This document shows, in pieces, positions 37,619 through 55,841 of a stretch of 64,000 nucleotides of DNA (position 1 is its first letter; every line of letters starts with the position of its first letter). Both the position numbers and the translations under genes were made by a program. The stretch comes from a virus: positions 45,660 through 109,659 of IMG/VR virus record IMGVR_UViG_3300023179_000039. The stretch is one strand, 5' to 3'. The notes below the pieces were generated by a model. The model saw nothing but the letters and a program-made list of their open reading frames with translations. It was not told where the DNA came from and did not search any database.

Positions 37619-39910
37619 ATGGTAACGCTCTATACAATGACAACAGCCGATAGGGCTTCAGTTTTATATGATTTTAAGACTATTGACACGTCAAAAGACA
37701 TAATAGTTTCTTTTGACTATAATAGTTCTGGTATTATTGACAATGTAGGGGAGGGATTTAGTTTATTTTTTACCGAAAGTATAAACAATTTTCCCAAAGG
37801 TGGCGCTCTCGGCCCAGGATTAGGCGCAACAAGCTTGGTTGCTATTTCGAGCTTTTGTTACAGTATACCCATTCCTCCTTTTAATATTTGTGTTAATATT
37901 CCGGTTATGTATTCAGGAGTAAGAGAAGCTGCTTTAGTGGTTGGCTTTGATATTACTGGTAAATTTGGTTCTAATAATAGTGGATTAGATGGTCCCTCCG
38001 ATCCAATACCTAACTCAATAGCTATTAGAAGCGGGTACAATCAAAACTTTAATTTCATTTATAGAACACCCGCATTAACAAGTAACGAGATTGCCGAGCC
38101 TTTTAGTCTTTATAGTAATGATCAAACTACATACAACACATTTAGAGCTAGGCTTACAAACTTAGGAAAAAATTTAATTTTAGATCATAAAATAGCTGAC
38201 GGTACATTTTATAATATCTGTAACGTGCAAATACCTTATGATCTACCTGGATATGTATATCCTTGTATCGGCTATAGTTCAGGAATAAGACCTTTTAATT
38301 TAACAGTTAAAAATTTTTATGAAAACGGATTTTTTGTAACACCTACTAATACACCAACAGTTACACCTACGAATACCGTTACACCAACAGTAACACCTAC
38401 GAATACCGTTACACCAACAGTAACACCTTCATTTACTGTCACACCATCTAATACACCGACTTATTCGCCCACACCGTCTATAACACCTACTAATTCGATG
38501 ACTCCTACTATTACACCGACCTATACAGAGACGCCCACAGAAACACCTACAAATACACCTACATTGACCATTACACCTACTAACTCGATGACGCCTTCTA
38601 TTACTCCTACGTATACAGAAACACCAACAGTGACACCTACAAACTCGATGACACCTTCTATTACACCTACAAACACCGTTACACCGTCCTTTACACCTAC
38701 AAATACACCGACCTTAACGCCTACACCTACGGTAACACCTACAGTTACTCTACCTGACTACTTGCCATTCCCATCACAACAAAATAACATTATTATTAAC
38801 GATAATACAATAGCTACACCTTACCCGGTTACATTTAGTGTAGCTGGAATTACAAGAACAGTTTACAAGGTAGTTGTAAAGCTTACAAATTATACCCATT
38901 CATTTGTAGGTGATGTAGGAATGCTTTTAGTTGCACCAGATGGTACATCTACAATTATTGCTGGTAGAATTGGAGATGATCAACAGGCTAACAATACAAC
39001 AGTTGTGTTAGATCAGCGTGCCTCTAAGGCATGGGATGGATACACATCAGGTACATTTAGACCTAATTCTGTCGCTGATGACTTCCCATTCGATGCACCA
39101 GCGCCTACTGGTCCTTTCTCAACTACATTAGATGCATTCTTCTATATGCCAGCTGTAAATGCAAACGGTACATGGAAACTTTACATACAAGACTTTGCTG
39201 CAGACGATGCTGGTACCATGCAGAGTGCAGAGCTTAGGATATATCAATACTCACCTAATGCGTCGCCAACACCTACACCAACAATTACACCTACCTTTAC
39301 TCCTACACCTACAGTTACACCTACTATACCAATTACACCCACACAAACACCTACACTTACACAAACACCTACTATAACACCTTCTATTACTATTTCGCCT
39401 TCTAATATAGACTATACAGCTTTCCCATCTTCAACAACTAATCTAATTATAAATGACTTGACTGTCGCCACTCCTTATCCTCTAGAGATACCGGTATCAG
39501 GCATAACTAATACAACATCCAGAATTTCTATATCCTTGAGTGGTTATGATCATTCTTATCCAGAAGACGTTGTAATGCTATTAGTATCTCCTGTTAATAC
39601 CGCATGTATCATTTCAGGTAGAATAGGACTACAAGCGGCTAACAACATTAATGTAATACTTGACCAAAGCGCTTCGCTTTATTGGGATGGATATAGCCCA
39701 GGAATGTTTAAGCCTAACACATCTGCAAATAATTTTGACATGAGCTTAACTAATGGATGCCCTACCGGTCCGTACAATACATCTATGGCTGTGTTTAATA
39801 ACTTACCATATCCCGATGTTAACGGAACTTGGAAGCTATACATTCAGGATTTCGCCGCTCAGGATACAGGTACATTGTATAGAGCTATACTAAGGCTTCA
39901 TCATTATTAA
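37619..39910 (+). CDS. L-type lectin-like domain + Thr/Pro linkers + two proprotein-convertase P-like domains
   Basis: [17 protein letters not shown] lectin motifs; two copies of ATPYP...H...D..MLLV.P...[16 protein letters not shown]. Confidence 0.75.
38338..38748 (+). repeat. Thr/Pro-rich mucin-like coding repeat
   Basis: About 135 codons of TPTxTPT; a second shorter tract lies at about 39262-39400. Confidence 0.9.
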
Positions 39911-39919
39911 TTAATAAGA

Positions 39920-39947
39920 TTGATTTAAACCGATCTTATTATAAAAT
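39920..39947 (+). promoter_or_regulatory. Sigma70-type promoter (glycosylation operon)
   Basis: TTGATT-N16-TAAAAT-N6-GTG. Confidence 0.75.
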
Positions 39948-39953
39948 ATTCTT

Positions 39954-41240
39954 GTGAAGTCAAAGAAAGCTTTAAAAACATCAAGTACCAAAAAGAATAA
40001 TGAAAAAATATTTATATCTATTGCATCCTATAGAGATCCGCAGTTACTACCCACACTGCGCGATTGTATAGCTAACGCTGTACATCCTGAGAATTTAGTT
40101 TTTTCTATTTGCTGGCAAAGAGACGAGAAAGAATCGCTAGAAGAGTTTGCAAAAGACAGCAGATTTAGAATTATAGATATACCTTATAAGGAAAGCAAAG
40201 GGACATGTTGGGCAAGAAGCAAGATACAAGATAATTATCAGAACGAAAAATACTATCTACAATTAGACAGTCATCATAGATTTGTAAAAGACTGGGATAA
40301 AAAGTGTATAGATATGGTTAAACAGTTACAGAAAAAAGGCCATAAGAAACCGCTACTAACAGGCTACATTTCTAGCTTTAATCCGGATAATGACCCCGCT
40401 GAAAGAATACAAACACCATGGAAAATGAATTTTGATAGATTTATTCCTGAAGGTGCTGTATTTTTTCTACCTGCTTCTATAGACGATTTTAAATCAAGAA
40501 CTGAACCAGTACCTTCTAGATTTGTATCTGCACATTTTATTTTTACGCTAGGTAAATGGGTAGAAGAAGTGCCTTATGATCCTCATTACTACTTTCATGG
40601 TGAAGAGATAAACTTAGCAGTTAGATCATATACGTGGGGATATGATTTGTTTCATCCTCATATTTTGATTGCATGGCATGAATATACAAGAAGAGGAAGA
40701 ACTAAGCATTGGGATGATGTAAAAGAATGGGGTGAATTAAACAGACTATCTCATCTTCGTAATAGAAAGTTATTTGAAATGGATGGCGAAAAGAATGATA
40801 TTAAATGGGGTAAATATGGATTTGGTAAGACCAGAACATTACAAGACTATGAAAAATATTCAGGTCTATGTTTTAAGAGGAGAGCTGTACAGCGTTGGAC
40901 GTTAGATAACAATTATCCACCTAATCCTAATCAAGCTATGACAAAGGATGAATATGAAAAATCGTTCTTAAAAATATTTAAACATTGTATTGATATAGGA
41001 TATGACAGAGTTCCAGAAAAAGATTATGATTTTTGGTGTGTAGCCTTTAAAGATAAAGAAGGTAAAGATGTGTTTCGTAAAGATGCTGATCGCGCTGAAA
41101 TAGATAGAATGTTTGCTGATCCTGACAAATATTGTAAGGTTTGGAGAGAATTTAATTGTGAGGAGATGCCTACCAGCTGGATTGTTTGGCCACATAGCGT
41201 TTCTAAGGGATGGGCAGATCCAATTACTGGTAATATCTAA
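39954..41240 (+). CDS. GT60-family (Gnt1/Skp1-type, GlcNAc) peptide O-HexNAc transferase
   Basis: IFISIASYRD, G.CWAR, LQLDSH.RF...WD, VPYDP..YF.GEE..LA.R.YT.G.D.F.P, WH.Y, RTL.DY. Confidence 0.85.
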   Translation: MKSKKALKTSSTKKNNEKIFISIASYRDPQLLPTLRDCIANAVHPENLVFSICWQRDEKESLEEFAKDSRFRIIDIPYKESKGTCWARSKIQDNYQNEKYYLQLDSHHRFVKDWDKKCIDMVKQLQKKGHKKPLLTGYISSFNPDNDPAERIQTPWKMNFDRFIPEGAVFFLPASIDDFKSRTEPVPSRFVSAHFIFTLGKWVEEVPYDPHYYFHGEEINLAVRSYTWGYDLFHPHILIAWHEYTRRGRTKHWDDVKEWGELNRLSHLRNRKLFEMDGEKNDIKWGKYGFGKTRTLQDYEKYSGLCFKRRAVQRWTLDNNYPPNPNQAMTKDEYEKSFLKIFKHCIDIGYDRVPEKDYDFWCVAFKDKEGKDVFRKDADRAEIDRMFADPDKYCKVWREFNCEEMPTSWIVWPHSVSKGWADPITGNI

Positions 41241-41248
41241 GTCTCTAT

Positions 41249-41914
41249 ATGAAGTTTTTAATTAAATTTCCCTGTAGAGGAAGGCCTGATAAGTTTAAAT
41301 CTACATTTCTCTCTTATTTTAATCTTATGTCTAAAAAACACGATGTGAGGTTTGTATTTACTTTTGATAATGACGATTCTTTAATGAATAGCGATAACAT
41401 AAAAAACTTTTTAGCTGATTATAAAGATATATGTGAAGTTAATTACGGTGACTGTAAGAATAAGATAGAAGCCGTTAATGCTAATATGGAAAATAAAGAG
41501 TTTGATATTCTTCTTTTAGCAAGCGACGATATGATACCGCTATTAACTTCTTATGATGATACAATCTGTAATGACATACAGACTAATTTTCCTGATTTAG
41601 ATGGTAGTGTCCAGTATTATAACCCAATGTGGGCAGAGCGATTAGACGTTGTATGTATTATGGGGTATCCTTATTATAAAAGATTTAACTACATTTATTA
41701 TCCTGGTTATAAATCGATTTACTGTGATAATGAATTTACACAAGTTAAAAATAAATTGAATAAAAACAAATATATACCAGAAACACAAATGTTTAATCAT
41801 AATTTTGTTATGAATGACGATACGGCTGCAAAAAACTGGCATTTTAATACAGAAGATGAACGGCTTTTTAATAAAAGACTAGTTGAAGGCTTTGATTTAC
41901 CATGTTCTCAGTAA
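41249..41914 (+). CDS. GT-A fold (GT2-like) glycosyltransferase
   Basis: KFPCRGRP, D.DD, KIEAVN, ASDDMIP, YCDNE. Confidence 0.75.
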   Translation: MKFLIKFPCRGRPDKFKSTFLSYFNLMSKKHDVRFVFTFDNDDSLMNSDNIKNFLADYKDICEVNYGDCKNKIEAVNANMENKEFDILLLASDDMIPLLTSYDDTICNDIQTNFPDLDGSVQYYNPMWAERLDVVCIMGYPYYKRFNYIYYPGYKSIYCDNEFTQVKNKLNKNKYIPETQMFNHNFVMNDDTAAKNWHFNTEDERLFNKRLVEGFDLPCSQ

Positions 41915-43248
41915 AAGGTATTCCGCTAGCCGACAGAGGCTATTATGTTAATTTAGATTCGTCTACTGAAAGAAAAGCGTTAGTTGAAGAGCAGATTAAA
42001 AAGTTTGATATTATAGATTTAGATAGATTTCCTGCCTTAACCGATCCCTTACACCAGAGCTCTGCCACTAAAAGTCAAAGAGCAGTATTTGAAGAAGCAG
42101 AAAAAAATAACTTTGAAACGATTTTTGTTGCAGAAGATGACTTCTTTATACCTGATACAGTACCGCATTACCCCAATTTAAAGCAAAAGACTTTTGAAGA
42201 GCATTTAAAAGATGTTGCAGAAGATCTTAAGACGTTAAATTGGGATGTTTATATGTTTGGTTGTACTCCCCGCTCATTTCTTATACCCTTTACAAAAAAT
42301 TCTGCTTTAATAGATAGAAGTACAGGTGCCTGGGCTTATTTAATTAAAAAACATGCATGGCGGTTTATATTAGAAAATTTTAGCTACGGTAGAGACTATC
42401 AAGCTATTGATAACATACTACCTTTATTAAATTTTAACAATTTTAGAGTCTTTACTTCACTTCCGCTACTTATACATCATTCTAAAGGCCTTGTTTCTAC
42501 CTTACAACCCGGGCTTGGACCTGTAGATTATACGCATTTAATAGAAGGGTATTATGGTAAGTTTTTATTAGACGGGGTTTTACCCGATGAAGACTATGTA
42601 GGTAAGCATAGCGTTGAAAGAGAAGTTACTATAGTGTTTCTGGATAGTATGTATGAGAGGTTTGTAGATATAATGAGAAAAACGCTTTTTAATCTTCCTA
42701 ATAGCGTTTCAAAATGTAGAATATTAATGTACTATATTGATAGTTATGATCATAAAACACAAGAACTAATAAGCTATTTTAGAGATAGACCCGATTTTTA
42801 TAATGTACATATTGAGCTTTTTAAAGATATGGATTGTTTAATATCAAGAATTGCTCAGATAGCTCAGACGCCCTACGTGCTTTTAATAAACCCAAAACAT
42901 ATTTTTACAAATAAAGAGATAGACTTTAATAACATCATAAAAAACGTTAAGGATAATAATATTGATGCATTAGTTTTTAATAACGATGACCAGTCAATAG
43001 AATTTTTTGATAAATTTGATAATCTTAACAATTTAACAAGCATACCAAACACTATTAGTTTAATAAAAACAGAATTTTTAAAAATTAATCCTACCGCTAA
43101 TCTATTTGACAATACATTAGTAGAAGGTAAAATAATAAAAAATTTAGATTATAAAGTTGGCTATCAAAACACCACTCAAAATAAATGTGTTGCAGATACA
43201 AAAACCGACGAATACATATTAAACAACCCGTTTAAAGATTATTATTGA
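41902..43248 (+). CDS. GT25-like glycosyltransferase with additional C-terminal domain
   Basis: YYVNLD...ER, RFPA, IFVAEDD, WDV.MFG, GAWAYLI, ID. Confidence 0.75.
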   Translation: MFSVKGIPLADRGYYVNLDSSTERKALVEEQIKKFDIIDLDRFPALTDPLHQSSATKSQRAVFEEAEKNNFETIFVAEDDFFIPDTVPHYPNLKQKTFEEHLKDVAEDLKTLNWDVYMFGCTPRSFLIPFTKNSALIDRSTGAWAYLIKKHAWRFILENFSYGRDYQAIDNILPLLNFNNFRVFTSLPLLIHHSKGLVSTLQPGLGPVDYTHLIEGYYGKFLLDGVLPDEDYVGKHSVEREVTIVFLDSMYERFVDIMRKTLFNLPNSVSKCRILMYYIDSYDHKTQELISYFRDRPDFYNVHIELFKDMDCLISRIAQIAQTPYVLLINPKHIFTNKEIDFNNIIKNVKDNNIDALVFNNDDQSIEFFDKFDNLNNLTSIPNTISLIKTEFLKINPTANLFDNTLVEGKIIKNLDYKVGYQNTTQNKCVADTKTDEYILNNPFKDYY

Positions 43249-43886
43249 TGAACTCCAAGATTGATAAAAGTATTAACCTAGAGGCAAATGATGGTCTTTG
43301 CATCTATGTCGACGAGCAATTTGGTCGGTTAGCATGCATGCAAAATAATAACGTTTTTGATGTATTTGATACTTTTATTTCTGATATTAAACCTGCGCGT
43401 GTTTTAGAGATCGGAACCGCATTAGCAGGCCTTACATGCTATATTAAAACCCTCTTACAGAAATATACACCTGACAGTGAAATCGTATCATATGATGTTT
43501 TAGATAGAAATTGGTTTGATGAATTGAGAGAGAAAGGCGTTAATATAAAGATAGAAGATATTTTTTCTGAAAATTATTCAGTTGTAAAAGATAATGTAAT
43601 TGAATTTATTAAGTCACCAGGTACTACAGTAGTATTGTGCGATGGCGGTAGTAAAGCAAAAGAATTTAATATTTTATCTAATTATCTTAAGAAGGGTGAT
43701 TTTATTTTAGCGCATGATTACAGCATTACAATTGATTATTTTTATGAAAATATTAATAAAAAACTTTGGAATTGGTGCGAGATTTTAGAATCTGATATTG
43801 CTGATTCAGTTACAAGAAATAATTTAGTTGACTATAAAAATAAGCTGTTTAACAAAGCTGTATGGACATGCAAGAAAAAAGTATGA
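43248..43886 (+). CDS. SAM-dependent O-methyltransferase (CmcI/rhamnosyl O-methyltransferase-like)
   Basis: VLEIGT..AGLT, LCDGG, LKKGDFILAHD; TGATG overlap supports ATG at 43248. Confidence 0.7.
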   Translation: MNSKIDKSINLEANDGLCIYVDEQFGRLACMQNNNVFDVFDTFISDIKPARVLEIGTALAGLTCYIKTLLQKYTPDSEIVSYDVLDRNWFDELREKGVNIKIEDIFSENYSVVKDNVIEFIKSPGTTVVLCDGGSKAKEFNILSNYLKKGDFILAHDYSITIDYFYENINKKLWNWCEILESDIADSVTRNNLVDYKNKLFNKAVWTCKKKV

Positions 43887-46198
43887 TTAATACAAATAAA
43901 ATACTTTCTTTTAATAATAAAAAACTTGATCCTTCTATAGTTAATACTGATCAAATAAAAAACATAGTACTTTATTTAGCTAGCTGTATTGATAGTAAAC
44001 TACCTGGTGATGTAGTTGAACTTGGCTGCTATGTAGGTGAAACTAGCAAATATATTTCTAAAACTATTGAAGAATCTAAGTCTAATAAAAAATATTATGT
44101 TTATGATTCTTTTGAGGGGTTACCCGATCTATCTAAATTTGAAGAAGGTACTGGGTGGAAGCCACGGACTCTTAATACTACTGAAGATATTCTTGTCTCA
44201 AATTTCGAACTTAATAATGTTCCGCTTCCCATTATAACAAAAACCTGGTTTAAAGATATAAAAAATAAGCAACTACCAAAGCAAATTTGCTTTGCTTTTT
44301 TAGATGGTGATTTCTACACATCAATTTATGAAAGCTTAGAAAAGGTATATGATAGAGTAGTTGACGGCGGTTATATCTTAGTACATGATTATAAAAGACC
44401 CGATCTACCAGGTGTAGAAGCAGCAATACAGGAATATTTTAGAATCAATAAATTAGAACTTAATATTATTGAAGCTTGTGAACAATTAGCAGTAATTAGA
44501 AAAAACAAAAAACCTGAAAAAATTAATACGCAAAAATCATGTTATACGATTGTAACGGGTCTTTGGGATATAGGACGCGATAAGTTAAAAGAAGGTTGGT
44601 CACGTGGTTATTCACATTACTTAGAAAAATTAGAAGAACTATTAAAAGCTGATTTTAATCTTATTATTTTTGGCGATAAAGAATTGGAGAAGTTTGTTAG
44701 CGAGCGTAGATCTGACTACAATACACAGTTTGTCTTAAGAGATATCGACTGGATTAAAAATATGCCATTTTTTGATAAAATTCAAGAAATTAGAACTGAT
44801 CCTGACTGGTATACGCAAGCAGGTTGGTTAGCAGATTCAACCCAAGCAAAGCTAGAGCTTTATAACCCCTTAGTAATGTCTAAGGTATTTTTATTACACG
44901 ACGCTAAAATTCTTGATAAGTTTGATTCTGAATATTTGTTTTGGCTTGACGCAGGCATTACAAACACAGTGCATTATGGTTATTTTACACATGATAAAGT
45001 TTTAGATAAGCTACCTTCAATACTAGAAGATAAGTTTTTGTTTGTCAGTTTCCCCTATCCTGATGGCGCAGAAATTCATGGTTTTTCGCGTAATAAAATG
45101 AATGAAATAGCTCAAGCAGAGAATGTTGAGTATGTTTGTAGAGCGGGATTTTTTGGCGGGCCTAAGAATGTAATTTCTGAAATTAATAGTATTTATTACG
45201 GGCTATTGAACAGTACTTTAAGCGAAGGTTATATGGGTACAGAAGAAAGTATCTTTACCCTAATGACATACTTACACCCTCATTTATTTACAAGATTTTC
45301 AATAGAGGGTAACGGGCTGCTAGGTAAATTTTTTGAAGATTTAAAAAATATTAAAGTAGAAGATAAAAAGAAAGCAATTGATACAAATATCTTATCCGGC
45401 GTAACTCTTTATGTAATCACATTTAATTCACCTAAACAGTTCGCTACATTGTGTGAAAGTTATTTAAAGCAACCAGGTTTTATAAAGGAAACAACTAATT
45501 ATCTTCTTGACAACAGCACAGACGCGTCTACATTTGATGAATATAAAGCTCTTTGCGATAAATATAACTTTGTTCATATAAAGAAAGATAATCTTGGTAT
45601 TTGTGGTGGTAGGCAGTTTATTGCTGAGCATTTCCACGAAAGTAATTCTAAATACTGCATTTTTCTAGAGGATGACATGACATTATGTACCAAAAATTTT
45701 GCACCATGTAAGAATGGGCTATCGCGCTTTACTAATAATTTATTTTATAAGATAGTAAAAATTATGGATAAAGAAAAATTTGACTTTCTCAAGCTATCTT
45801 TTACAGAATTTTTTGGCGATAACTCTATTCAATGGGCATGGTATAATGTACCTCAGCATGTAAGAGAGAGTTTTTGGCCAAACAATAAAAAACTACCTCA
45901 GATGGGATTGGACCCTAATGCACCTAAGACAGAATTTAAGCATATCAATAATATAGACGGTCTTAGCTATATTAATGGCGATATATACTATTGTAATTGG
46001 CCGCAAATAGTCTCAAAAGCAGGTAATAAAAAAATGTTTATTGATACTAAATGGGCATCGCCTTTTGAACAGACATGGATGTCATATATGTTTCAGCTTA
46101 CTAAACAAGGCGATTTAAAAGGCGGGCTTCTATTATTATCTCCTATAGAACATAATAGATTTGATCATTATTCTAATAAATTACGTAGAGAAAACTAG
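43883..46198 (+). CDS. Fusion: TylF/MycF sugar O-methyltransferase + HtrL/YibB-like glycosyltransferase + GT-A domain
   Basis: GDVVELG..G, YDSFEGLP, LDGD.Y.S, GG.I.VHDY; TIVT.LWDIGR, MSK, WLDAG, GFFGG, GTEE; GICGGRQ, FLEDDM. ATGA overlap suggests start 43883 (ORF track 43862). Confidence 0.8.
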   Translation: MINTNKILSFNNKKLDPSIVNTDQIKNIVLYLASCIDSKLPGDVVELGCYVGETSKYISKTIEESKSNKKYYVYDSFEGLPDLSKFEEGTGWKPRTLNTTEDILVSNFELNNVPLPIITKTWFKDIKNKQLPKQICFAFLDGDFYTSIYESLEKVYDRVVDGGYILVHDYKRPDLPGVEAAIQEYFRINKLELNIIEACEQLAVIRKNKKPEKINTQKSCYTIVTGLWDIGRDKLKEGWSRGYSHYLEKLEELLKADFNLIIFGDKELEKFVSERRSDYNTQFVLRDIDWIKNMPFFDKIQEIRTDPDWYTQAGWLADSTQAKLELYNPLVMSKVFLLHDAKILDKFDSEYLFWLDAGITNTVHYGYFTHDKVLDKLPSILEDKFLFVSFPYPDGAEIHGFSRNKMNEIAQAENVEYVCRAGFFGGPKNVISEINSIYYGLLNSTLSEGYMGTEESIFTLMTYLHPHLFTRFSIEGNGLLGKFFEDLKNIKVEDKKKAIDTNILSGVTLYVITFNSPKQFATLCESYLKQPGFIKETTNYLLDNSTDASTFDEYKALCDKYNFVHIKKDNLGICGGRQFIAEHFHESNSKYCIFLEDDMTLCTKNFAPCKNGLSRFTNNLFYKIVKIMDKEKFDFLKLSFTEFFGDNSIQWAWYNVPQHVRESFWPNNKKLPQMGLDPNAPKTEFKHINNIDGLSYINGDIYYCNWPQIVSKAGNKKMFIDTKWASPFEQTWMSYMFQLTKQGDLKGGLLLLSPIEHNRFDHYSNKLRREN

Positions 46199-46240
46199 AT
46201 CAAGCACGTTTAAATAGCTGTAATTTAAGTAAATAATAAT

Positions 46241-46969
46241 GTGAATTACGTTTATTATGTGCTTTCTAGTGTACAAACTTCAGGAACACCTTCTTTATTA
46301 AATCACTATCTATTCACCGACCCCGTTTACGGTACTAATATTGTTTACCCTAATAGCGCTAATGGCTATATTTTTGACATACCTACAAGCTATGTATTCG
46401 ATGCTTCTGCTAACGGAGGCAAGTACTTTCCGTGGGGATATTCAGTTGAAAACACATATCTAAGTGCAGATTTAGGGTTTTTTAAAGGGCAATGTACACT
46501 CACCTTTATACCTTCTGGTATTGATAACAAATATTACACAACATTAAAAATAGTTTATGATTTTAATGATAATGAAATTATAGACATTGAAAAAGGTATA
46601 GTACAAAACATTTTACCCGGTAATGTTGCTTTTCTGGACAATGGCTCACCTAACAACACCAATGTTTCTCATGTTTATACTTCTAAATCATTAAGTAAGA
46701 CGACTTATTTTCCAACAGTTACTGTTTTAAATGGAAATATGGTATTAAACGTTTTTAATTTTAAATTAACCATATTACCCGGTACTGTTTTTGATTTTGA
46801 AGACTTTCATTTAATAAATTCTGCACAACTAACAAAATTTGATAATACGCAATTTAAGTCATTAGAAGTTTTTGAATTTAACGAGACTAGCGATGATGAA
46901 AATTATTTAACTAATTTCTTATTAACCAGTGCAAACGCGACTATAACTACATCTAGCTCATCAGCGTAA
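46241..46969 (+). CDS. Hypothetical late structural protein
   Basis: TAAATA-N5-GTG; degenerate PKD-like YDF.D...SHVY..YFPTVT. Confidence 0.6.
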   Translation: MNYVYYVLSSVQTSGTPSLLNHYLFTDPVYGTNIVYPNSANGYIFDIPTSYVFDASANGGKYFPWGYSVENTYLSADLGFFKGQCTLTFIPSGIDNKYYTTLKIVYDFNDNEIIDIEKGIVQNILPGNVAFLDNGSPNNTNVSHVYTSKSLSKTTYFPTVTVLNGNMVLNVFNFKLTILPGTVFDFEDFHLINSAQLTKFDNTQFKSLEVFEFNETSDDENYLTNFLLTSANATITTSSSSA

Positions 46970-46974
46970 AAATG

Positions 46975-46982
46975 TATAAATA
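46975..46982 (+). promoter_or_regulatory. T4-like late promoter
   Basis: Full TATAAATA-N6-ATG. Confidence 0.7.
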
Positions 46983-46988
46983 TTTATT

Positions 46989-49900
46989 ATGGATGTAATT
47001 AACTTAGCCTCAACAAATTTTGTTGGACTATCATCTAGGTATAAGGAAGATGAAACATTAAAATTTAATGAGAATGTTATTTTTTCGGAACAAAATATTT
47101 TACTTCCTATTAATAACATACTAAAAGAAATTAATGATAATAAAATTAATAATTTTTCTAATTTATTTTTAACCGAAAAAAATACTCTATCAAACGCTTT
47201 TACTGTCGAAAAGCTAGACCCATTATCCGATGAAGGATTTTCTACCTATTTTGCTGCAAACGCTGCAGGTTCTATTACGCCGTCTACAAAGTTTTGGGTA
47301 GTAGAAGAACCTAATATCTTAACAAATATTGCTCAAGTTACTGTTGATGGTGAGTTTACAAATATTAATAATCAATACTTTTTTGATGTTGAATTAATTT
47401 CTGATAAGCTTTGTAAGATTTCGCATGAAAATGAAAATATAGTAAGATATTTAACAGTAGATTATACCGGCAACCTTTCTTTTACAAAAGATGCACAGTT
47501 AGATATTATCGGCCCGTTAAGCCCGCAAATATTTTATTATGTTTATGATAGAGGTTATAATTACATGGTTCTTATAAAAAATATTAATGATATACCTAAG
47601 TTTGTTACGTTCAATGCTAATGCAAGCGATTTATCATTAACCGATCCAATTACTGGTACAAGCGTTCCATACTCAATATCATCTATTTTTAGAGTGAGAG
47701 AACGAAATCCTATTCCTAATAAAATTGATTTATTTGATCCTTGGGTTAGCTATAATAAAAATTTTAAAACAAATTCGCAAGATATTAATTTGGATAGAAG
47801 CTTTAATAAAATAAATAATAATTTTCTTTTAAGTAATGAATTTTATAATATTTCATCAAACTTTATAGATTTTAATATTCTTTCACTTAAAAATAATTTT
47901 ACCCCTGAGTATAATTTATCTAGAGGCAATCCATTTTTTGATGAATCAAATGTAGAATTGCGTGACTATCAAAAAATAAACTCTGGCACCTATCAAAATT
48001 TAGGTAACGATAATATTACACTAAGCTATGAAAGCTATACATCGAATATTATTCTTAAAAAAGATAAGATAACATATTTTCATATACCTCAAATTTTTTA
48101 TCCATTTGAAAGGCTTAACATTAATGATTCAAATTTAGTTAATGCAGGGGCTATAGCAGGCGATCACCCTCTTAAATCGGATAAAATATTTAAAAAGAAA
48201 GCTGATTACAAATATACTTCTAATTATGGTAATACTATAGAAGAAAATTCTGGTGAATTTTTATGTGCATGGCTTTCAGGTAGCATAGATCCTACCACCA
48301 GGCCTATATGGGTAGACAGATATTATAACCCTAAAAAGATATCTGGCTATCAAGCATTAACCGCTTCTGATTTTAAAGCTATTAAATACATTTCTAATTT
48401 TGACTGTTTAGTAGATAAAGCATTTGAGACGTTTGCGAAAGATGTTCCTGTTTTCGACAAACCTTCAGATTTAATCTTTGAGAAGGGTACCTATTATGCA
48501 TATCATCATTATGGCCCTAGAGATGTAGAAAAATTTATAAATTCATTTTCTAAAAATTTAGCAGTTAAAAACATTCCTAATTATAAATTTTATAATGGCT
48601 CAGACGCTACATACTTTTCTACTGTTATTGATAATAGTAATAATATCTCAGAATATATCTTTAATGGTCAAACATACGGTATAACATCGCCTTTATCATC
48701 AATTCAAGAATCAAATCAATTTACTCTTATATTTGATGCGCATAGTAATGATTGGTCTGCACCACTAGGCTATCAACTAGTAGGAAATTATGATAGAGAT
48801 GGGTTTGGAATATTTAATGAAAACATTGTAACCCCTACTTTGTTTATACCGTACTTAAGCGGTACCTACGTTACAAATTTAAATTATAAAAAACTTAATA
48901 CTCTAGCATTTAACAGCAATCTAAAAGCAATTATTCGACTACAAGGTATGAATGACTTTTACGGTGTATTTGAAGATAATAGCTTTAGACGTTTTAATTT
49001 AAATTACTCTGAAACAAGAAGAAATTATCCCTCAGATCCTTCCGATCAATTGGGTAAAGTAAGAGGGTACGATTACAGTGAAACAGATGTTAGAGTCTTA
49101 ATAGGCGATAATCCAGGCGCTAAGAAAATAATGTTATTAGATTTAAAATCTCAAGAAATAACAGATATTACTACTGGTACTTTAAATCTTGCTAGATATC
49201 CTAGAAGATACCCCACAGATGTAACAAATATTAACTCCGCAAATTCTTTAATTCTCTATAATGATACAATGTATTTGTTAAGAGGCTCTAAAGCGTTTAG
49301 AGCTAATGATTCTATTTTTTATAGCTATGATAGCAAGAGAATATTTTTATGGGAAAATATTTCAGACATCACAAGCGTTACGCCGACTACAGCATTTGCC
49401 TCTTCTACTGTTATAAATGATTTTTCTATCGATTTCGATCATAATTTATGGATATTATTTGACGACAATAAATTTGCAAAATATTCATATGATAGAGTAT
49501 TTTTACTTTCAGGCCATTTTACTGATACTATAGATAAAAACTACACCAACTTTAAAGTAGATTTTACTGCAGATTTTGATAAGGGAAATTACAATACCTA
49601 TGCAGTAATTACCAGGCAATCTTATACTGGGGAAAAGAAAAACTTACAATTTGTAAAAATGTCATTAAGCGGTAATAACGTAGAAAGATCATTATTTAAC
49701 AGAAATGTACCGCTTGGTGATAATTATATTATACAACAATATATTGATGGTACAGTATTTTCTACTTCACAGACGCTTTCAAGTAAATATGCAACAGGAT
49801 TAGATGTAGGTAGAATTATACCACAATCTGATTTTAATACTATTTTATCGTTTAACCCTTCACTTGCTTCTTACGCCTCATTTATGTCAAACAACACAAT

Positions 49901-50582
49901 TAATTTTTCTAATAGTAAGTTTTTATCATCTTTTATAAAAGATAAATACCCACCCTCAAGTATAAATGTAAAATCACAACTCACCAATATTTTTAATATA
50001 AACGATACTTCATCTGCAGAAATAATTTTTGATTTAGCAAAACTCGATCCTGGATATCATAATTTTGCTGTTAGATTTGACGCTGATAACGGACTTATGC
50101 ATTTGTTTGTCGATGGTCAATTGCAAGGTTTTAGCGAATTTACTCCTAGAAAGTATAAATTTAGCGATTTAATAAACAGGCCTTTCTTAATAGGTAGCTC
50201 TAGTTATGCTTATTCACTACCACTATTTTCATATTTAAAAAATACATCATTTATAGCATCTGATATCACTATCAAGAATTTTTATTTATATGATAAACCG
50301 CTTTTTGATTTTGACATTTTGTTTCATGCTAGAAAAGGTATGAGGATTCAGGATTTAATTTTTGATGTTGCTTGTGGTAGACGTAATTATACTGAAGAAA
50401 TAGAAAGATATTTTAAATTAAGACCACCCGGCTCTAAGTCTACTAAATACAACCTCATTATTAAAAACACAGGTATAAGCGATAAAGACTTACAATATGC
50501 ATTAGAACAAAGAATATATGATATTATAAACAGCACTGCCCCCGCCTATACAAAGTTAAATAATATTAAATGGGTAGGATAA
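46989..50582 (+). CDS. Large structural protein with C-terminal LamG/ConA-like motif
   Basis: YHNFAVRFD...HLFVDGQ...IG...FYLYDKPL; TATAAATA-N6-ATG. Confidence 0.65.
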   Translation: MDVINLASTNFVGLSSRYKEDETLKFNENVIFSEQNILLPINNILKEINDNKINNFSNLFLTEKNTLSNAFTVEKLDPLSDEGFSTYFAANAAGSITPSTKFWVVEEPNILTNIAQVTVDGEFTNINNQYFFDVELISDKLCKISHENENIVRYLTVDYTGNLSFTKDAQLDIIGPLSPQIFYYVYDRGYNYMVLIKNINDIPKFVTFNANASDLSLTDPITGTSVPYSISSIFRVRERNPIPNKIDLFDPWVSYNKNFKTNSQDINLDRSFNKINNNFLLSNEFYNISSNFIDFNILSLKNNFTPEYNLSRGNPFFDESNVELRDYQKINSGTYQNLGNDNITLSYESYTSNIILKKDKITYFHIPQIFYPFERLNINDSNLVNAGAIAGDHPLKSDKIFKKKADYKYTSNYGNTIEENSGEFLCAWLSGSIDPTTRPIWVDRYYNPKKISGYQALTASDFKAIKYISNFDCLVDKAFETFAKDVPVFDKPSDLIFEKGTYYAYHHYGPRDVEKFINSFSKNLAVKNIPNYKFYNGSDATYFSTVIDNSNNISEYIFNGQTYGITSPLSSIQESNQFTLIFDAHSNDWSAPLGYQLVGNYDRDGFGIFNENIVTPTLFIPYLSGTYVTNLNYKKLNTLAFNSNLKAIIRLQGMNDFYGVFEDNSFRRFNLNYSETRRNYPSDPSDQLGKVRGYDYSETDVRVLIGDNPGAKKIMLLDLKSQEITDITTGTLNLARYPRRYPTDVTNINSANSLILYNDTMYLLRGSKAFRANDSIFYSYDSKRIFLWENISDITSVTPTTAFASSTVINDFSIDFDHNLWILFDDNKFAKYSYDRVFLLSGHFTDTIDKNYTNFKVDFTADFDKGNYNTYAVITRQSYTGEKKNLQFVKMSLSGNNVERSLFNRNVPLGDNYIIQQYIDGTVFSTSQTLSSKYATGLDVGRIIPQSDFNTILSFNPSLASYASFMSNNTINFSNSKFLSSFIKDKYPPSSINVKSQLTNIFNINDTSSAEIIFDLAKLDPGYHNFAVRFDADNGLMHLFVDGQLQGFSEFTPRKYKFSDLINRPFLIGSSSYAYSLPLFSYLKNTSFIASDITIKNFYLYDKPLFDFDILFHARKGMRIQDLIFDVACGRRNYTEEIERYFKLRPPGSKSTKYNLIIKNTGISDKDLQYALEQRIYDIINSTAPAYTKLNNIKWVG

Positions 50583-50583
50583 T

Positions 50584-52200
50584 ATGAATATATTACAAGA
50601 AACATTGAAAGAAGGGTTTATATATGATCGCTATTTAGGCGAATCGCTTACTCTGCCTTACGATATAAATCAAATTAAAATACAAGCTAATGAAACTGTA
50701 TCAGCAGATGTTTTAAATTTAAAACTAGAACATCTTTATGATAATTTTATCTATATTTATAAAAATACGTTACTAGCGTCTAATGTAATCCCCGTTTCAT
50801 CCACTGCAATTGCGGGTGTTACAGCATCATCTACTAATTTTACTTGGTATAGAGGGTTAAGTTCTAGAGATTTTATATCTCTTTCTAACAATTTAACTTT
50901 AGGTGGTTTAGATAGTACTGAAACCTCATTTTTAATAAAAAATAGGGATATAGATAGATATTCGCTACTCACTTCATCAGGACCATCCATTAATGTGTTT
51001 AATTTTGACTATAATGCATCTTATATAAAGAAAGTACACACTCAAACACAGATTGATCAAAATTACGGCGTACCGTTTGCAAATATTTGTTCATTTGACT
51101 TGTATGAAAACAATCTGTATGTTTTAGACTGCGAATTAAATAGATTAGTAAAATATGATGTAAGCGGACTTACTGAATTAAACACAGTTACAAATAACAG
51201 GCTTTCTTATGTTGACTCGATAGGCAATTTTGGTGATTTTAATTCTAAAACAGATTTTAATAACCCCGAAGGCCTTACTATTGCAGGTGAATATATTTTT
51301 GTTTTAGATTCAGGAAATTCCTGTATTAAAAAATATGATTTAAATTTAAATTGGGTTTACACATATAGACTTTATAAAGACTTTCTAAAAGATTACCCTA
51401 TAGATATAGCATCTGACTTTAACGGCAGTATCTATGTTTTAACGCAAAGCAATAAAATTTTTATTTACAATAATGAAATTTCTGATAAAAAAATTATAGA
51501 TTTATCTACATTAAAAGAAAGTGATGAATATTTTAAAAGATTAGTTTTTTCTCAAACAGATAATAATGTTTTTTATGTTTATTCTAATAAAAATATATAT
51601 AAAAAATTAGTTAATAAGCCATACGACACTATTGGCAAATATTTGTTGTACTTATTTAAGTATGACATACCTGACGAAGAAATAAATACGTTTTGTTCTG
51701 CTCCATCACAAGATTTTACAAGCGATGTAAATATTATGTTTTCTGCTTCTGGTAATGTAGGTAAATTTGGTTATTTTCTAGATAATTTAAATTTATTTGA
51801 TGTACTAGCTGTAAGAAATTTTGACATCTATGATTTTAATGAAATAAAATTTAACAGTAATGAATACCTGCAAAATTGGGTCTTTAATAAAAATATTTCA
51901 AAGCTCTTATTAAATCATATGAGATTAAGAGATCAAATAATAGGCAAATTTATTGCTTCTCGAGACTATTTAAATAATATCTTTTTTAAAGGTACAAGAT
52001 ATCTTTTACCCGATGAATTAGACGCTATATATTTTTCACAAGATATAACTAATTTTATAGGCGGTAACGAGATAATTTCAAATAGTATAGTTAATAGGCC
52101 TTTTGAAAAAATTTACGATATTCAAGTAAAATTACTTAAAGTTTTAAGTTCTGAAATTATTAAAACACCCTTTAATACTAACCCTATATTTTTAAACTAA
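50584..52200 (+). CDS. NHL/beta-propeller repeat structural protein
   Basis: FNNPEGLTI...IFVLDSGNSCIKKYD; LYVLD..LNRLVKYD. Confidence 0.7.
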   Translation: MNILQETLKEGFIYDRYLGESLTLPYDINQIKIQANETVSADVLNLKLEHLYDNFIYIYKNTLLASNVIPVSSTAIAGVTASSTNFTWYRGLSSRDFISLSNNLTLGGLDSTETSFLIKNRDIDRYSLLTSSGPSINVFNFDYNASYIKKVHTQTQIDQNYGVPFANICSFDLYENNLYVLDCELNRLVKYDVSGLTELNTVTNNRLSYVDSIGNFGDFNSKTDFNNPEGLTIAGEYIFVLDSGNSCIKKYDLNLNWVYTYRLYKDFLKDYPIDIASDFNGSIYVLTQSNKIFIYNNEISDKKIIDLSTLKESDEYFKRLVFSQTDNNVFYVYSNKNIYKKLVNKPYDTIGKYLLYLFKYDIPDEEINTFCSAPSQDFTSDVNIMFSASGNVGKFGYFLDNLNLFDVLAVRNFDIYDFNEIKFNSNEYLQNWVFNKNISKLLLNHMRLRDQIIGKFIASRDYLNNIFFKGTRYLLPDELDAIYFSQDITNFIGGNEIISNSIVNRPFEKIYDIQVKLLKVLSSEIIKTPFNTNPIFLN

Positions 52201-52201
52201 T

Positions 52202-52384
52202 GTGGCTAGGTTTATCTTTAAAACTCTATCAGGGGGCAATGGATCAAATATTGTACCAGAATTTCCTACACCAACACCTTCAATTACAAATACACCGACA
52301 TACACACCTACCCCTACTGTCACCCCTACAAACACACCTACACAAACAGTTACACATACAGTAACGCCAACAAATAAAAAGTAA
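52202..52384 (+). CDS. Small Thr/Pro-rich protein, paralogue of the N-terminus of the downstream mucin-like protein
   Basis: Coupled on both sides (TAA-T-GTG, TAA-T-ATG); N-terminal similarity to the 52386 product. Confidence 0.7.
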
Positions 52385-52385
52385 T

Positions 52386-55300
52386 ATGGCAAAATTTGTT
52401 TTTAAAGCTAACGTAGGTGGGGCAGGGTCAAACGTAGTACCAATATTACCCACACCCACGACTACACCTACAGAATCACCTCCCCTGCCTTCTGAGACAC
52501 CTACACAAACGCCTACCGCTACACCTACGAAAACTACAAATTTAGCTGTATCACAGACACCCACTCAAACACCTACCGTTACAAAGACGCCTACTAATAC
52601 ACATACGGTAACCCCATCCATCACCTTAACACCTACATCGACGCTGACGCCTACCCATACACCTACTTTATCTCCTACAGTTACTCAAACGCCTACTAAT
52701 ACACCTACTGTTACTGTAACAAATACACCTACTAATACTTTAACTCCTACAAATACCCCCAACCCCACTCCTACAGAAACACCTACATTGACACCTACAG
52801 TTACAATGTCGGAAACGCCTACTAATACACCTACCTTAACTCCTACTTTGACGCCTACAGAGACACCGACTAATACACCTACCGTTACTGTTACTAATAC
52901 GACTACTGTTACGCCGTCAGAAACACCAACAAATACACCAACAGTAACAAACACCGTTACACCGACAGAAACGCCAACCGAAACGCCTACTAATACACCG
53001 ACAAATACTGTTACACCTTCATTTACATTTACACAGACACCTACAGAAACACCTACTCTTACCCCAACATGTACAGAAACCCCGACAAATACAGTTACTC
53101 CAACTGAAACTCCGACTGAAACTCCGACAAATACACCTACAGTAACTTCAACAGTAACACCTACAAATACTGTAACAGAAACACCTACACAAACACCAAC
53201 CGTCACACCGTCCTTTACACCTACAGAAACCCCGACAAATACCCCTACTGTAACGGTAACTAATACTGTAACGCCATCGTTTACTCTAACTGAAACACCT
53301 ACAAACACCGTTACGCCGACATTTACACCAACTGAAACCCCTACTAATACACCGACCAATACTTTAACTCCAACTTATACACCTACCGTCACAGTAACAA
53401 ATACACCTACTAATACTTTAACCCCTACTTATACGCCTACCGTCACAGTAACAAATACACCTACTGTGACACCTACCTATACTGTAACGCCTACTAATAC
53501 AGTTACACCGACTACCACATTAACATATACACCTACCTTTACTCCTACTAATTCACCTACAACTACAATGTTCGATACAATGACACCGACACCCACTTTA
53601 ACGCCTACCAATACACCTACCAACACAAAAACGCCGACAGTTACACCAACTAACACAGTATCTCCTACACTGACAATGACATCAACTGTTACACCTACTG
53701 TTACACCTACAGTTACGAAAACAGCAACACCTACTTTAACACCAACTAATACACCCACAGTTACTGTAACAAACACACCTACAAATACTCTTACTCCAAC
53801 CCCGACAAATACCCCTACTGTAACGGTAACTAATACTGTAACGCCATCGTTTACTCCTACACTTACACCTACAGTAACACCTACAGTAACGCCTACTAAT
53901 ACACCAACAGTTACGGTGACAAACACACCAACTAATACCGTAACGCCTTCGTTTACATTTACTCAAACTCCTACTATAACACCGACCAACACACCAACTA
54001 ATACCGTTACGCCTACAATAACGCCTACTGTTACCGTGACAAATTCACCAACTAATACAGTTACGCCTACTAATACTGTAACTGTCACGCCTACCAATAC
54101 ACCTACCAACACAGTTACACCCACTAATACTGTTACTGTAACACCTACAAATACTGTTACACCAACTGTAACACCTACAGTAACTCCGACAAATACCGTT
54201 ACACCTTCGTTTACATTTACACAAACACCTACAGTTACACCGACCAATACAGTAACGCCTACTGTAACGCCTACTGTAACGCCAACAGCAACACCTACTT
54301 ATACTGTAACGCCTACTAATACCCCTACACTTACAGTTACAGGCACACCTACCCCTACACTTACAGTTACAGGCACACCTACTAATACGCCAACAAATAC
54401 AAGAACACCTACTTTAACACCTACCGTTACGCCAACAGTAACTCCGACAAACACGGTAACACCATCATTTACATTTACACAGACTTCTACCGTTACACCG
54501 ACCAATACAGTAACGCCTACTGTTACACCTACAGTTACGAAAACAGTAACACTAACACCCACCGTTACACCTACTAATACAGTTACCTCAACTGTTACAC
54601 CAACTATAACTCCTACAAAAACCGTAACACCGTCCTTTACGTTTACGCCAACAAATACGTTAACACCTACAATTACACCTACCAATACACAGACTCCTAC
54701 CGTTACACCAACTAATACTATTACACCTACTGTTACGCCGACTGTAACCCCTACAAAGACGTTAACACCTACTTTAACGTTAACACCTACAGTAACACCA
54801 ACTAGTACGCCGACACCAACACAGACGCCAACACCTTCTATTACTCCTACCACATCTCTAACTCCTACTATTACACCAACAAATACTGTTACACCAACTG
54901 TAACACCCACAGTTACACAAACAATAACACCTACTACAACGCAAACACCTACTTATACACAAACGAGCACAGTGACGCCAACTATTACGCCTACCACATC
55001 TGAGACACCCACTATTACGCCTACCACATCTGAGACGCCTACCTTAACACCAACAGTGACACAGACACCTTCTTTCACATTTACACCTACGGTAACAATA
55101 ACACCTACTACTACACAAACACCTACTGTAACAATAACACCTACTACTACACAAACACCAACAAATACCCCAACAGTAACACAGACGCCAACATTAACAC
55201 CAACAATAACACCTACATATACACCAACTAAAACACCTACGCAGACTTTGACACCTACTAATACGCCCACCGTTACACCTACACCTACTAAGACGCCTAC

Positions 55301-55841
55301 AGTAACACCAACAATAACGCCCACGGTAACTAAGACACCTACACAAACACCTACAACTACATTAACACCAACAATAACGCCCACGGTAACTAAGACACCT
55401 ACACAAACACCTACAACTACATTAACACCAACAATAACGCCCACGGTAACTAAGACACCTACACAAACACCTACAACTACACCTACAGATACGCCAATAC
55501 TAGCAAATTATATGAATACTTCTGTTGTATGTGATGGTACTGCACAGTCTGCATGTATAGGTACAACTCCTTACAGTACCTTAAATATTAGTGGAGTTGC
55601 AGGGCTTATATTTAAGTTTAATTGTAGTACAAATTATAATACTGCTGTTGATACAGGGTTAACTAATCAAATCTATATTAATGGCGTACAGGTTGCTACT
55701 ATTAACTTCCAGAGAAGGTCACCTACATCATCATATTATGAATTATTCTCCGTACAGAACGGTGTAGGTGCACCTGTATATTATGGTAAGTTTAGATCTA
55801 ATCTTACTAAGATATATTTCCCTGAGGATAACCAGACTTAA
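52386..55841 (+). CDS. Giant mucin-like Thr/Pro-rich protein with small Cys-containing C-terminal domain
   Basis: About 1,000 aa of T-x-T-P repeats; about 110-aa non-repetitive C-terminus. Confidence 0.85.
52450..55495 (+). repeat. Mucin-like coding repeat tract with VNTR units
   Basis: Degenerate repeats plus exact 30-bp x2 (54321-54380) and 60-bp x3 (about 55303-55481) units. Confidence 0.9.

Follow-up and report, generated by a model that had tools for sequence, protein, structure and literature searches.

Glycosyltransferases (GTs) of CAZy family GT60, with which Pfam family PF11397 is equated in the literature, add α-linked N-acetylglucosamine (GlcNAc) to Thr of trypanosome mucins or to hydroxyproline (Hyp) of Skp1, and every characterised member of the family glycosylates polypeptides (PMC6939170). 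Among phages, the cluster F1 mycobacteriophages Che8 and Rita, as cited in PMC11256854, encode GTs that glycosylate their capsid proteins in the cytoplasm and give rise to a glycan coat. Here we analysed a 64,000-nucleotide stretch of phage DNA (the window; positions 45,660 to 109,659 of IMG/VR record IMGVR_UViG_3300023179_000039), which carries a five-gene cassette headed by a GT60 gene and, on both sides of it, genes for proteins with long Thr/Pro-rich (T/P) tracts. The window is the 3' part of a linear 109,659-bp contig (GC 33%, about 51% complete by CheckV) from an uncultured T4-like myovirus from a lake. We consider it probable that the cassette is a phage-encoded, cytoplasmic system for mucin-type O-glycosylation of the phage's own T/P tracts, a reading based on enzyme family and fold, on synteny and on a co-occurrence that is strong yet phylogenetically shallow. 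To our knowledge, glycosylation of a phage's own virion proteins by phage-encoded enzymes has been demonstrated only in a few actinobacteriophages, and in the searchable literature we found no paper linking PF11397 or GT60 to phages or to T/P tracts.

The GT60 enzyme and its cassette partners

The cassette spans window positions 39954 to 46198 and consists of the following genes:

39954-41240, + strand: GT60 glycosyltransferase (PF11397), predicted and proposed as the initiating polypeptide N-acetylhexosamine (HexNAc) transferase
41249-41914, + strand: probable small glycosyltransferase, 221 aa, variable cassette member (phrog_14945 "glycosyltransferase", E 1.2e-8)
41902-43248, + strand: probable GT25-related glycosyltransferase, 448 aa, variable cassette member (PF01755, E 0.0076, sub-threshold)
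43245-43886, + strand: CmcI/rhamnosyl O-methyltransferase-like S-adenosylmethionine-dependent methyltransferase (PF04989, RMNT_CmcI)
43862-46198, + strand: fusion of a TylF sugar O-methyltransferase with a tandem GT-A enzyme, three domains (PF05711, PF09612)

The intergenic spacing of +8, −13, −4 and −25 nt fits a single operon, and the block is placed between the gp6-like baseplate wedge gene and the tail-fibre gene; both the coordinates and the close packing given for it in the earlier note were reproduced.

The GT60 identity proposed from the letters alone was borne out by the family profile, which the 39954-41240 protein matches with 235.9 bits (E 1.2e-69, cut-off 21) in two stretches covering profile positions 2-44 and 94-350; it also matches phrog_24687 with E 6e-168. 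The protein is composed of a GT-A catalytic domain (residues ~15-337) followed by a β-rich C-terminal domain (residues 338-428). A DxH motif, D105-S106-H107, is invariant in 12 homologues, 118 positions are invariant across 44-87% identity, and in 44 representatives down to 36% identity D105 and H107 remain invariant and S106 nearly so. The AlphaFold2 (AF2) model made with 44 homologues, down to 36% identity, has a pLDDT of 94.9 and a GT-A fold. Among the Foldseek PDB matches listed for this model (about 30, from ranks 1-50), all are GT27 polypeptide GalNAc-transferases, including GalNAc-T1, T2, T4, T10 and T12, PGANT9 and TgGalNAc-T3. An all-against-all search with VIA-align, which makes no use of Foldseek, had mGalNAc-T1 at the top (Z 21.6, 280 residues aligned, rmsd 3.8 Å), then TgGalNAc-T3 (Z 20.1), with generic GT-A enzymes at Z ≤17.5. 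The kinship of GT60 to the GT27 enzymes that initiate mucin glycans, stated in the earlier note, thus finds structural support in both searches. By sequence the protein gave no PF00535 or PF00652 match at E ≤0.01, that is, neither the GT27 catalytic profile nor the ricin-type lectin profile, and a PDB sequence search with the GT60, 221-aa and 448-aa proteins returned nothing useful. The C-terminal β domain (40965-41237) is confidently predicted, has no assigned fold and occupies the same position as the GT27 lectin domain; from this position, it may be an acceptor-binding module. The family is abundant, with more than 7,700 matching proteins in a 90%-identity collection and 189 IMG/VR contigs, and four giant public proteins (P0127, P0128, P0130 and P0134; 1,600-2,460 aa) contain three to four GT60-matching stretches each.

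The last gene of the cassette encodes the constant partner of GT60. Its TylF domain (residues 26-204) matches PF05711 with E 5e-21 (75.7 bits, cut-off 23) and, in the PDB, the solved sugar O-methyltransferases NovP (E 2e-10) and MycF (E 8e-6); it is followed by an HtrL_YibB domain (PF09612, residues 229-478, E 2e-13) and a C-terminal GT-A domain. The AF2 model of residues 229-778 exhibits two GT-A domains (pLDDT 87.7), and Foldseek matched this tandem part over its full length to 2z87, 7zvj, 9e92 and 9evj (E 1e-9 to 5e-7), an architecture like that of the E. coli K4 chondroitin polymerase (K4CP), LARGE1, Mimivirus R699 and COLGALT1. Acidic motifs are found in both halves, with D135 invariant in domain 1 and D376-D377 in domain 2, as the K4CP/LARGE1 architecture predicts. 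Within IMG/VR we found 189 relatives of the window GT60 and read 80 of their loci; a tandem GT-A homologue lies no more than 10 kb from GT60 in 73 of the 80, usually as a standalone protein of ~555 aa and sometimes fused to TylF as it is in the window. The genes between the two vary by locus and include small GTs and CmcI-like methyltransferases.

The three enzymes encoded between them in the window are less firmly placed. For the 221-aa protein, which the earlier note had called GT2-like, assignment as a glycosyltransferase holds weakly through phrog_14945 and the GT2 label was too strong: its ESM Atlas neighbours are viral clusters named as GTs, only 12% of which carry PF00535, it has no match in Pfam and no PDB sequence match, and it is present in only some relatives. 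The label "GT25-like" was likewise too strong for the 448-aa protein, which scores 16.6 bits against PF01755 (cut-off 24). A homologue 40% identical to it at another GT60 locus (L034) does pass that profile, with 34.3 bits, and for this reason the GT25 assignment is transitive only. The proposed O-methyltransferase and TylF/HtrL/GT-A fusion both stood, the fusion clearly and the methyltransferase at the margin, since it passes PF04989 with 24.5 bits against a cut-off of 23.2 (E 2.5e-5); it has no PDB sequence match, and CmcI-like homologues occur in many GT60 loci.

These enzyme families bear on two other possible targets. Glycosylation of a hydroxymethylated or hydroxylated pyrimidine in the phage DNA, as in T4, would suit a T4-like phage, and residues 554-647 of the fusion weakly match a β-glucosyl-HMC α-glucosyltransferase PHROG (E 1.3e-6). 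TylF and CmcI relatives, however, methylate sugars of natural products rather than DNA, the contig (within its 51% completeness) holds no thymidylate-synthase-type hydroxymethylase, GT60 does not appear in a 2026 survey of glycosylated 5-hydroxycytosine systems, and the association with T/P tracts described below would be left unexplained. The enzyme families being a misfit, we set this reading aside as hardly likely at all. A second target would be a host cytoplasmic protein, through which the phage would take over host physiology: Gnt1, the best-known member of GT60, acts in protists on just one regulatory protein of the cytoplasm, Skp1. Gnt1, though, needs a prolyl 4-hydroxylase, and no such enzyme (PF13640) was found in the source contig or in five complete GT60-positive phage genomes, where a host enzyme could still supply the activity. 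Since none is encoded, Thr or Ser is the likelier GT60 acceptor, and a Gnt1-like Hyp acceptor in a Skp1-type pathway was set aside as first choice. A chain built by several enzymes and capped with methyl groups would also be an unlikely way of modifying a regulator, the cassette sits in the structural module, and here too the T/P association would go unaccounted for, so that we regard action on a host regulator as very improbable.

Thr/Pro-rich tracts and their association with GT60

The candidate acceptors of the proposed O-glycosylation lie directly upstream of the cassette and, with two conserved structural-module genes, downstream of it:

37619-39910, + strand: 763-aa modular protein, candidate acceptor (translation; PF01483, E 1.5e-12; T/P scan)
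46241-46969, + strand: 242-aa protein with a Ser/Thr-rich tail, possible acceptor (translation; preceded by an ATAAATA-type motif)
46989-52200, + strand: two conserved structural-module genes, 1197 aa and 538 aa, the latter with an NHL repeat (synteny; NHL PF01436, E 1.2e-5)
52202-52384, + strand: 60-aa mini T/P protein, candidate acceptor or truncated paralogue (translation; T/P residues 20-59)
52386-55841, + strand: 1151-aa T/P filament protein, main candidate acceptor (translation; T/P residues 24-1046)

The three T/P proteins around the cassette are as the earlier note described them. The 1151-aa protein begins with a 22-aa motif, continues with about 1,000 residues of degenerate TPTx repeats and ends in a globular C-terminus of ~105 aa. 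In the 763-aa protein an N-terminal domain (residues 1-246) is followed by a T/P tract (247-387), a P-domain, a second T/P tract (550-603) and another P-domain, both P-domains being of the proprotein-convertase type; its match to phrog_15511 was rejected as merely low-complexity T/P similarity to the XacN1 ORF232-237 family. The N-terminal domain of the 763-aa protein and the C-terminal domain of the 1151-aa protein have no match in Pfam, PHROGs or the ESM Atlas. An N-terminal [KR][YF][IV]F[KR] motif is common to the 60-aa and 1151-aa proteins and to the genes at the same position in relatives. All three proteins carry the long low-complexity tracts of Thr/Ser and Pro expected of mucin-like (PTS) acceptors, and their T/P tracts are the only ones in the whole 109,659-bp contig. 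The repeat DNA of the 1151-aa gene is itself degenerate, a mosaic of many periods with 63-99% matches in TRF, which indicates that the T/P repeat region of more than 1 kb is not an assembly artefact. Four minus-strand open reading frames (ORFs) of 149-224 aa at 52685-55444, within this gene, are by-products of low complexity rather than genes. From gene position, the T/P proteins are probably present in the virion.

The arrangement is conserved. In 15 related loci we observed the same order of gp6-like wedge, two large structural-module proteins, T/P-linker protein, GT60, variable genes, tandem GT-A, 242-aa homologue and 1197-aa homologue, with the homologue of the 763-aa protein directly 5' of GT60 in all of them. 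The 242-aa homologues, directly 3' of the cassette, have T/P tails with tracts of 41-221 residues, which makes the 242-aa protein of the window a possible acceptor. The genes at 46989-52200 stand between the cassette and the T/P filament genes and are co-linear in relatives (loci L003-L021 and L427-L431); the slot directly 3' of the NHL-repeat gene is occupied by a T/P filament gene in 5/5 extended relatives, and a tail-fibre gene then follows in both loci that reach that far. The length of the gene in this slot, in window and relatives, ranges from 91+ to 1151 aa.

Co-occurrence of GT60 with T/P tracts, together with synteny, was the test put forward in the earlier note, and it came out strongly positive in both directions. 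In one direction, IMG/VR records were picked solely by a (TPTx)4 DNA pattern and compared with a random set picked by a neutral 14-base pattern: PF11397 was found in 21/73 T/P-picked records versus 1/77 random ones, that one weak (Fisher p 7e-7), and, among records of at least 90 kb, in 14/21 versus 0/11 (Fisher p 4e-4). In the other, (TPTx)3 was present in 19/44 records whose GT60 is 62-73% identical to that of the window versus 0/40 random records (Fisher p 5e-7), and among records at least 90% complete in 9/9 GT60-positive versus 0/12 random (Fisher p 3e-6); a reversed-pattern control gave zero matches across the GT60-positive records. The T4-like lineage was also sampled through homologues of the 1045-aa structural-module protein (26-70% identity, loci with at least 8 kb downstream), by an alignment-based search used in place of a single-sequence search that gave only 6 loci. 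T/P ORFs were found in 20/20 GT60-positive loci versus 5/25 GT60-negative loci (Fisher p 2e-8). In other GT60-positive phages the T/P tracts, in proteins of 500-2,500 aa, join FGE-sulfatase-type, ConA/laminin-G-type lectin and P-domains, from which it follows that the tract itself, and not one protein family, travels with GT60. One IMG/VR record (L336:4266-18999, the record behind locus L046) encodes two adjacent ~2,440-aa proteins with up to nine T/P tracts each and FGE-sulfatase-like domains, one of them also with a ConA-like lectin domain.

The association recurs in a clade of cultured phages far removed from the window phage. Among phages in culture, GT60 is carried solely by Xanthomonas phages XacN1 and Xoo-sp13 and Stenotrophomonas phages CM1 and RAS14, their GT60 being 44-47% identical, and the tandem GT-A partner was confirmed in XacN1 (ORF330, 44% identity) and RAS14 (40%). 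TPTxTPT matches number 51 in XacN1 and 22 in RAS14 (0 for the reversed control). The proteins that contain them are large ones encoded next to the tail sheath gene, a series of six paralogues and one giant of 2,800 aa; a "virion structural protein" PHROG is matched by one of the XacN1 T/P proteins. Five GT60-negative jumbo relatives (RsoM2USA, XbC2, RaK2, XaC1 and SCTP-2) have zero TPTxTPT matches. As XbC2 and XaC1 also infect Xanthomonas and lack both features, host genus and genome size do not explain the T/P trait. XacN1 virions show at least two Schiff-positive glycoprotein bands, which the authors suggest to be the work of the phage's own two GTs, in a paper that neither names GT60 nor makes a link to T/P tracts (PMC5852040). 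In the neighbourhood of the XacN1 GT60 (L327; ORF333, ORF328 and ORF325), a 765-aa carbamoyltransferase and a GT9 enzyme replace the methyltransferases, and an adjoining 3,313-aa hypothetical protein has short T/P tracts.

Several observations weigh against glycosylation of the T/P tracts by the cassette. The association is correlative: on a tree of the structural-module protein the GT60 state changes three times, giving three independent pairs, with which no significance is possible (T/P follows GT60 in about two and does the opposite in none), and adding the XacN1 clade brings the independent contrasts to about four. Among complete T/P-positive records 8/12 are without GT60 (4/12 with it), and five T/P-positive relatives lack GT60 on their incomplete contigs. 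The adjacency claimed for the window, seen in the 15 syntenic loci, is not general either: T/P genes lie within 10 kb in 15/55 more distant GT60 loci and are missing from that distance in 40/55, all complete genomes of this group having T/P tracts elsewhere. Distant loci, with GT60 62-72% identical, instead adjoin a subtilase, a trypsin-like protease, a nuclease and an actin-like protein. The phage GT60s are known from sequence and predicted structure, soluble GT-A enzymes can also use lipid-linked or nucleic-acid acceptors, the Schiff-positive bands of XacN1 may be other virion proteins, and the source contig is only about half complete. Recurrent neighbours of the distant loci are the actin-like "Volactin" (PF25216, E 5e-65), an S8 subtilase and a trypsin-like protease (L042:10124-11128, L072:13994-14932 and L075:12573-13343, all on the − strand).

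Part of this evidence would also suit the most serious rival, in which the cassette attaches sugars to other proteins of the phage, perhaps those of capsid, sheath or decoration, as in the mycobacteriophages, and the T/P tracts are unmodified spacers that happen to be frequent in the same phages. Most distant GT60 loci are not beside T/P genes, T/P tracts exist in phages without GT60, the XacN1 bands may be such other proteins, and the phage glycosylation known from the account in PMC11256854 targets capsid proteins. Bystander tracts, on the other hand, would hardly explain why T/P tracts occur in 11/11 complete GT60-positive genomes versus 0/17 complete GT60-negative ones (12 random IMG/VR records and the five jumbo relatives), the nearest solved folds act on Thr/Pro-rich mucin peptides, and T/P genes flank the cassette on either side in the 15 loci. 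We therefore judge this rival to be unlikely. The association looks one-sided: GT60 nearly always implies T/P tracts, and T/P tracts do not imply GT60. Such a pattern fits an enzyme that needs T/P tracts, tracts which may themselves stay bare or be served by other enzymes.

Remodelling of a host envelope glycan (lipopolysaccharide (LPS), capsule or surface glycoprotein) for superinfection exclusion or avoidance of re-adsorption would resemble the role of the glycan genes in cyanomyovirus hypervariable islands. The HtrL/YibB and GT25 families are named from LPS loci, methylated sugars are common in LPS, and the inner cassette genes vary between relatives as those of an island would. The five enzymes and all T/P proteins, however, have no membrane segment and no signal-like N-terminus, in agreement with a cytoplasmic setting and with the earlier note, which had called host periplasmic glycosylation unlikely, and the block contains no flippase, no polyprenol-phosphate GT and no membrane-bound GT, polymerase or ligase. 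The characterised GT60 members and the nearest folds are polypeptide transferases, and the link of GT60 to T/P tracts holds across very different hosts, with two Xanthomonas jumbo phages lacking both. Host-glycan remodelling would leave this link unexplained, and the position of the cassette in the late structural module is conserved; we consider it quite unlikely.

Proposed pathway and genomic setting

In the pathway that we infer, which extends to transfer onto protein, the kind of sugar, the residue that accepts it, T/P proteins as virion components, the timing of expression and the benefit to the phage, soluble GT60 would place the first HexNAc from a UDP-sugar on Thr (or Ser) hydroxyls of the TPTx tracts. 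The adhesin-like 763-aa protein and the filament proteins of 60 and 1151 aa would serve as its targets, with the S/T tail of the 242-aa protein as a further possibility. One or two more sugars would then come from the tandem GT-A enzyme, the pair of variable small GTs may diversify the chain, and the TylF-type and CmcI-type methyltransferases would O-methylate sugar hydroxyls. The predicted outcome is a set of stiff, protease-resistant mucin-like stalks that would keep lectin-like or P-domain heads off the baseplate. An RmlD-like NAD-dependent sugar-nucleotide reductase/epimerase is encoded far from the cassette:

2941-3774, + strand: RmlD-like sugar-nucleotide reductase/epimerase (PF04321, E 1.7e-18; PF01370, E 1.4e-13)

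It could provide a 6-deoxyhexose donor, any link with the cassette being presumptive; together with the CmcI-family enzyme it hints, speculatively, at a methylated 6-deoxyhexose in the glycan chain.

A bolder form of this proposal is conceivable, if on the unlikely side. Many large phages would build true mucin-like filaments in the bacterial cytoplasm, with densely O-glycosylated TPTx repeats running to hundreds of residues and a length of up to ~300 nm if extended; GT60 would prime Thr, the LARGE/K4CP-like tandem GT-A enzyme would lengthen every site to an oligomer or a repeating polymer, and methyl or carbamoyl groups would cap it. The resulting glycocalyx would set host range, stickiness and survival, and eukaryotic GT60/GT27 mucin-type initiation could have its evolutionary origin in the GT60s of phages and bacteria (more than 4,500 clusters at 50% identity).

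What has been observed is that the widespread pair of GT60 and tandem GT-A goes together with TPTx tracts, in lake, soil and sewage phages of both T4-like and jumbo type. Were the link causal, the T/P tracts of GT60-positive phages could be predicted to be glycosylation sites; glycoengineering might gain a way of making mucin-type glycoproteins in the bacterial cytoplasm; and receptor-binding appendages would have a hitherto unrecognised variable layer, with possible effects on host range, aggregation, protease resistance and the immune recognition of therapeutic phages. Because XacN1, Xoo-sp13, CM1 and RAS14 are in culture, the glycosylation reading is directly testable now.

Two kinds of promoter-like element were observed around the cassette and the structural genes:

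39920-39953, + strand: bipartite promoter-like element, TTGATTT-N14-17-TA(T)TAAAATA, its 3' end 4-7 nt ahead of the GTG start codon of GT60
12405, 13109, 15422, 15995, 17747, 18523, 28694, 34480, 46241, 46989, 55880 and 59644: gene starts preceded by ATAAATA

The earlier note had proposed a sigma70-type promoter for the cassette. The window copy, TTGATT-16-TAAAAT at 39920-39947, is a weak match (9/12), and generic sigma-70 scanning gave no excess over shuffles (89 found versus 94.8 expected). What does stand is a conserved element, present with the same position and sequence before GT60 in 14/14 close relatives, the flanks having diverged (L003-L016 and L025), and unique on the coding strand of the contig. 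Its layout loosely resembles that of T4 middle promoters. A separate regulatory signal for the cassette is plausible from these sequences; a generic terminator scan was not above shuffles, and as no terminator lies between the upstream late unit and the cassette, read-through is likely. At least 12 structural genes have the ATAAATA motif ahead of their ATG, at a fixed short distance of 5-12 nt. Were it the −10 element of a late promoter, the mRNAs of these genes would have next to no leader. In the window the exact T4 late motif, TATAAATA, occurs less often than expected (6 versus 19), one of its copies being at 46975. The T/P genes lack an ATAAATA motif; their translation is coupled to that of the structural-module genes upstream, which for the 763-aa gene is the 1045-aa gene. 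The order put forward in the earlier note, with early enzymes and late substrates, is a tentative reading of this difference in motifs.

The phage type was assigned from the following marker genes:

9619-12396, + strand: large terminase, 925 aa
13109-15406: tail sheath
27106-28041: gp44-like clamp loader
29178-31031: gp6-like baseplate wedge
55880-59635: tail-fibre protein

The terminase is unusually long, its N-terminal ATPase part also matching DnaC-like and primase PHROGs, and has a separate C-terminal "terminase" match at residues 724-841. Megablast against GenBank phages found no match to the cassette and no close relative of the window; the relatives are metagenomic, some of them contigs of metagenome-assembled genomes from Lake Lanier.

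Comparison with known glycosylation systems

The phage enzyme shares Pfam family PF11397 and the DxH motif with the characterised GT60 enzymes, Gnt1 and that of T. cruzi. Gnt1 is also soluble and cytoplasmic, and the T. cruzi enzyme acts on Thr/Pro-rich mucin tracts like those proposed as the phage target (PMC6939170). Unlike either, the GT60 described here is phage-encoded and would act in the bacterial cytoplasm, has no prolyl hydroxylase partner that we could find, which makes a Hyp acceptor unlikely, and combines an extra C-terminal β domain (338-428) with a tandem GT-A partner enzyme. The GT27 enzymes of animals and Toxoplasma provide the closest solved structures, share the DxH metal site and use as acceptors Thr near Pro, as proposed for the phage GT60. 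They differ in sequence (12-16% identity) and belong to another CAZy and Pfam family; no ricin-type lectin domain is detectable in the phage protein, which also lacks their anchoring as type II membrane proteins of the Golgi.

Virus-encoded glycosylation of virion proteins by soluble, multidomain GT/methyltransferases, independent of the host, is found in the chlorovirus PBCV-1, as we propose here, and Mimivirus, with its fibril glycans, contributes R699 to the top fold matches of the window tandem GT-A. Both are viruses of eukaryotes, unlike the window phage. The capsid glycans of PBCV-1 are N-linked and atypical, and we know of no giant-virus glycosylation machinery that uses GT60 initiation.

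The phages offer the nearest parallels in setting. In Che8 and Rita, from what is cited in PMC11256854, phage GTs modify the phage's own structural proteins in the bacterial cytoplasm, as is proposed here. In that account the targets are capsid proteins and the GTs are of other families, in contrast to the GT60 initiator and the likely tail-associated T/P targets described here; Che8 and Rita are actinobacteriophages, whereas the hosts here, where known, are Gram-negative. XacN1 has the same pair of GT60 (ORF334, 47% identity) and tandem GT-A (ORF330) as the window and, as in the window, T/P linkers, many of them in large proteins next to the tail sheath gene. It differs from the window phage in being a Rak2-like jumbo phage whose cassette has a carbamoyltransferase and GT9 and no methyltransferases.

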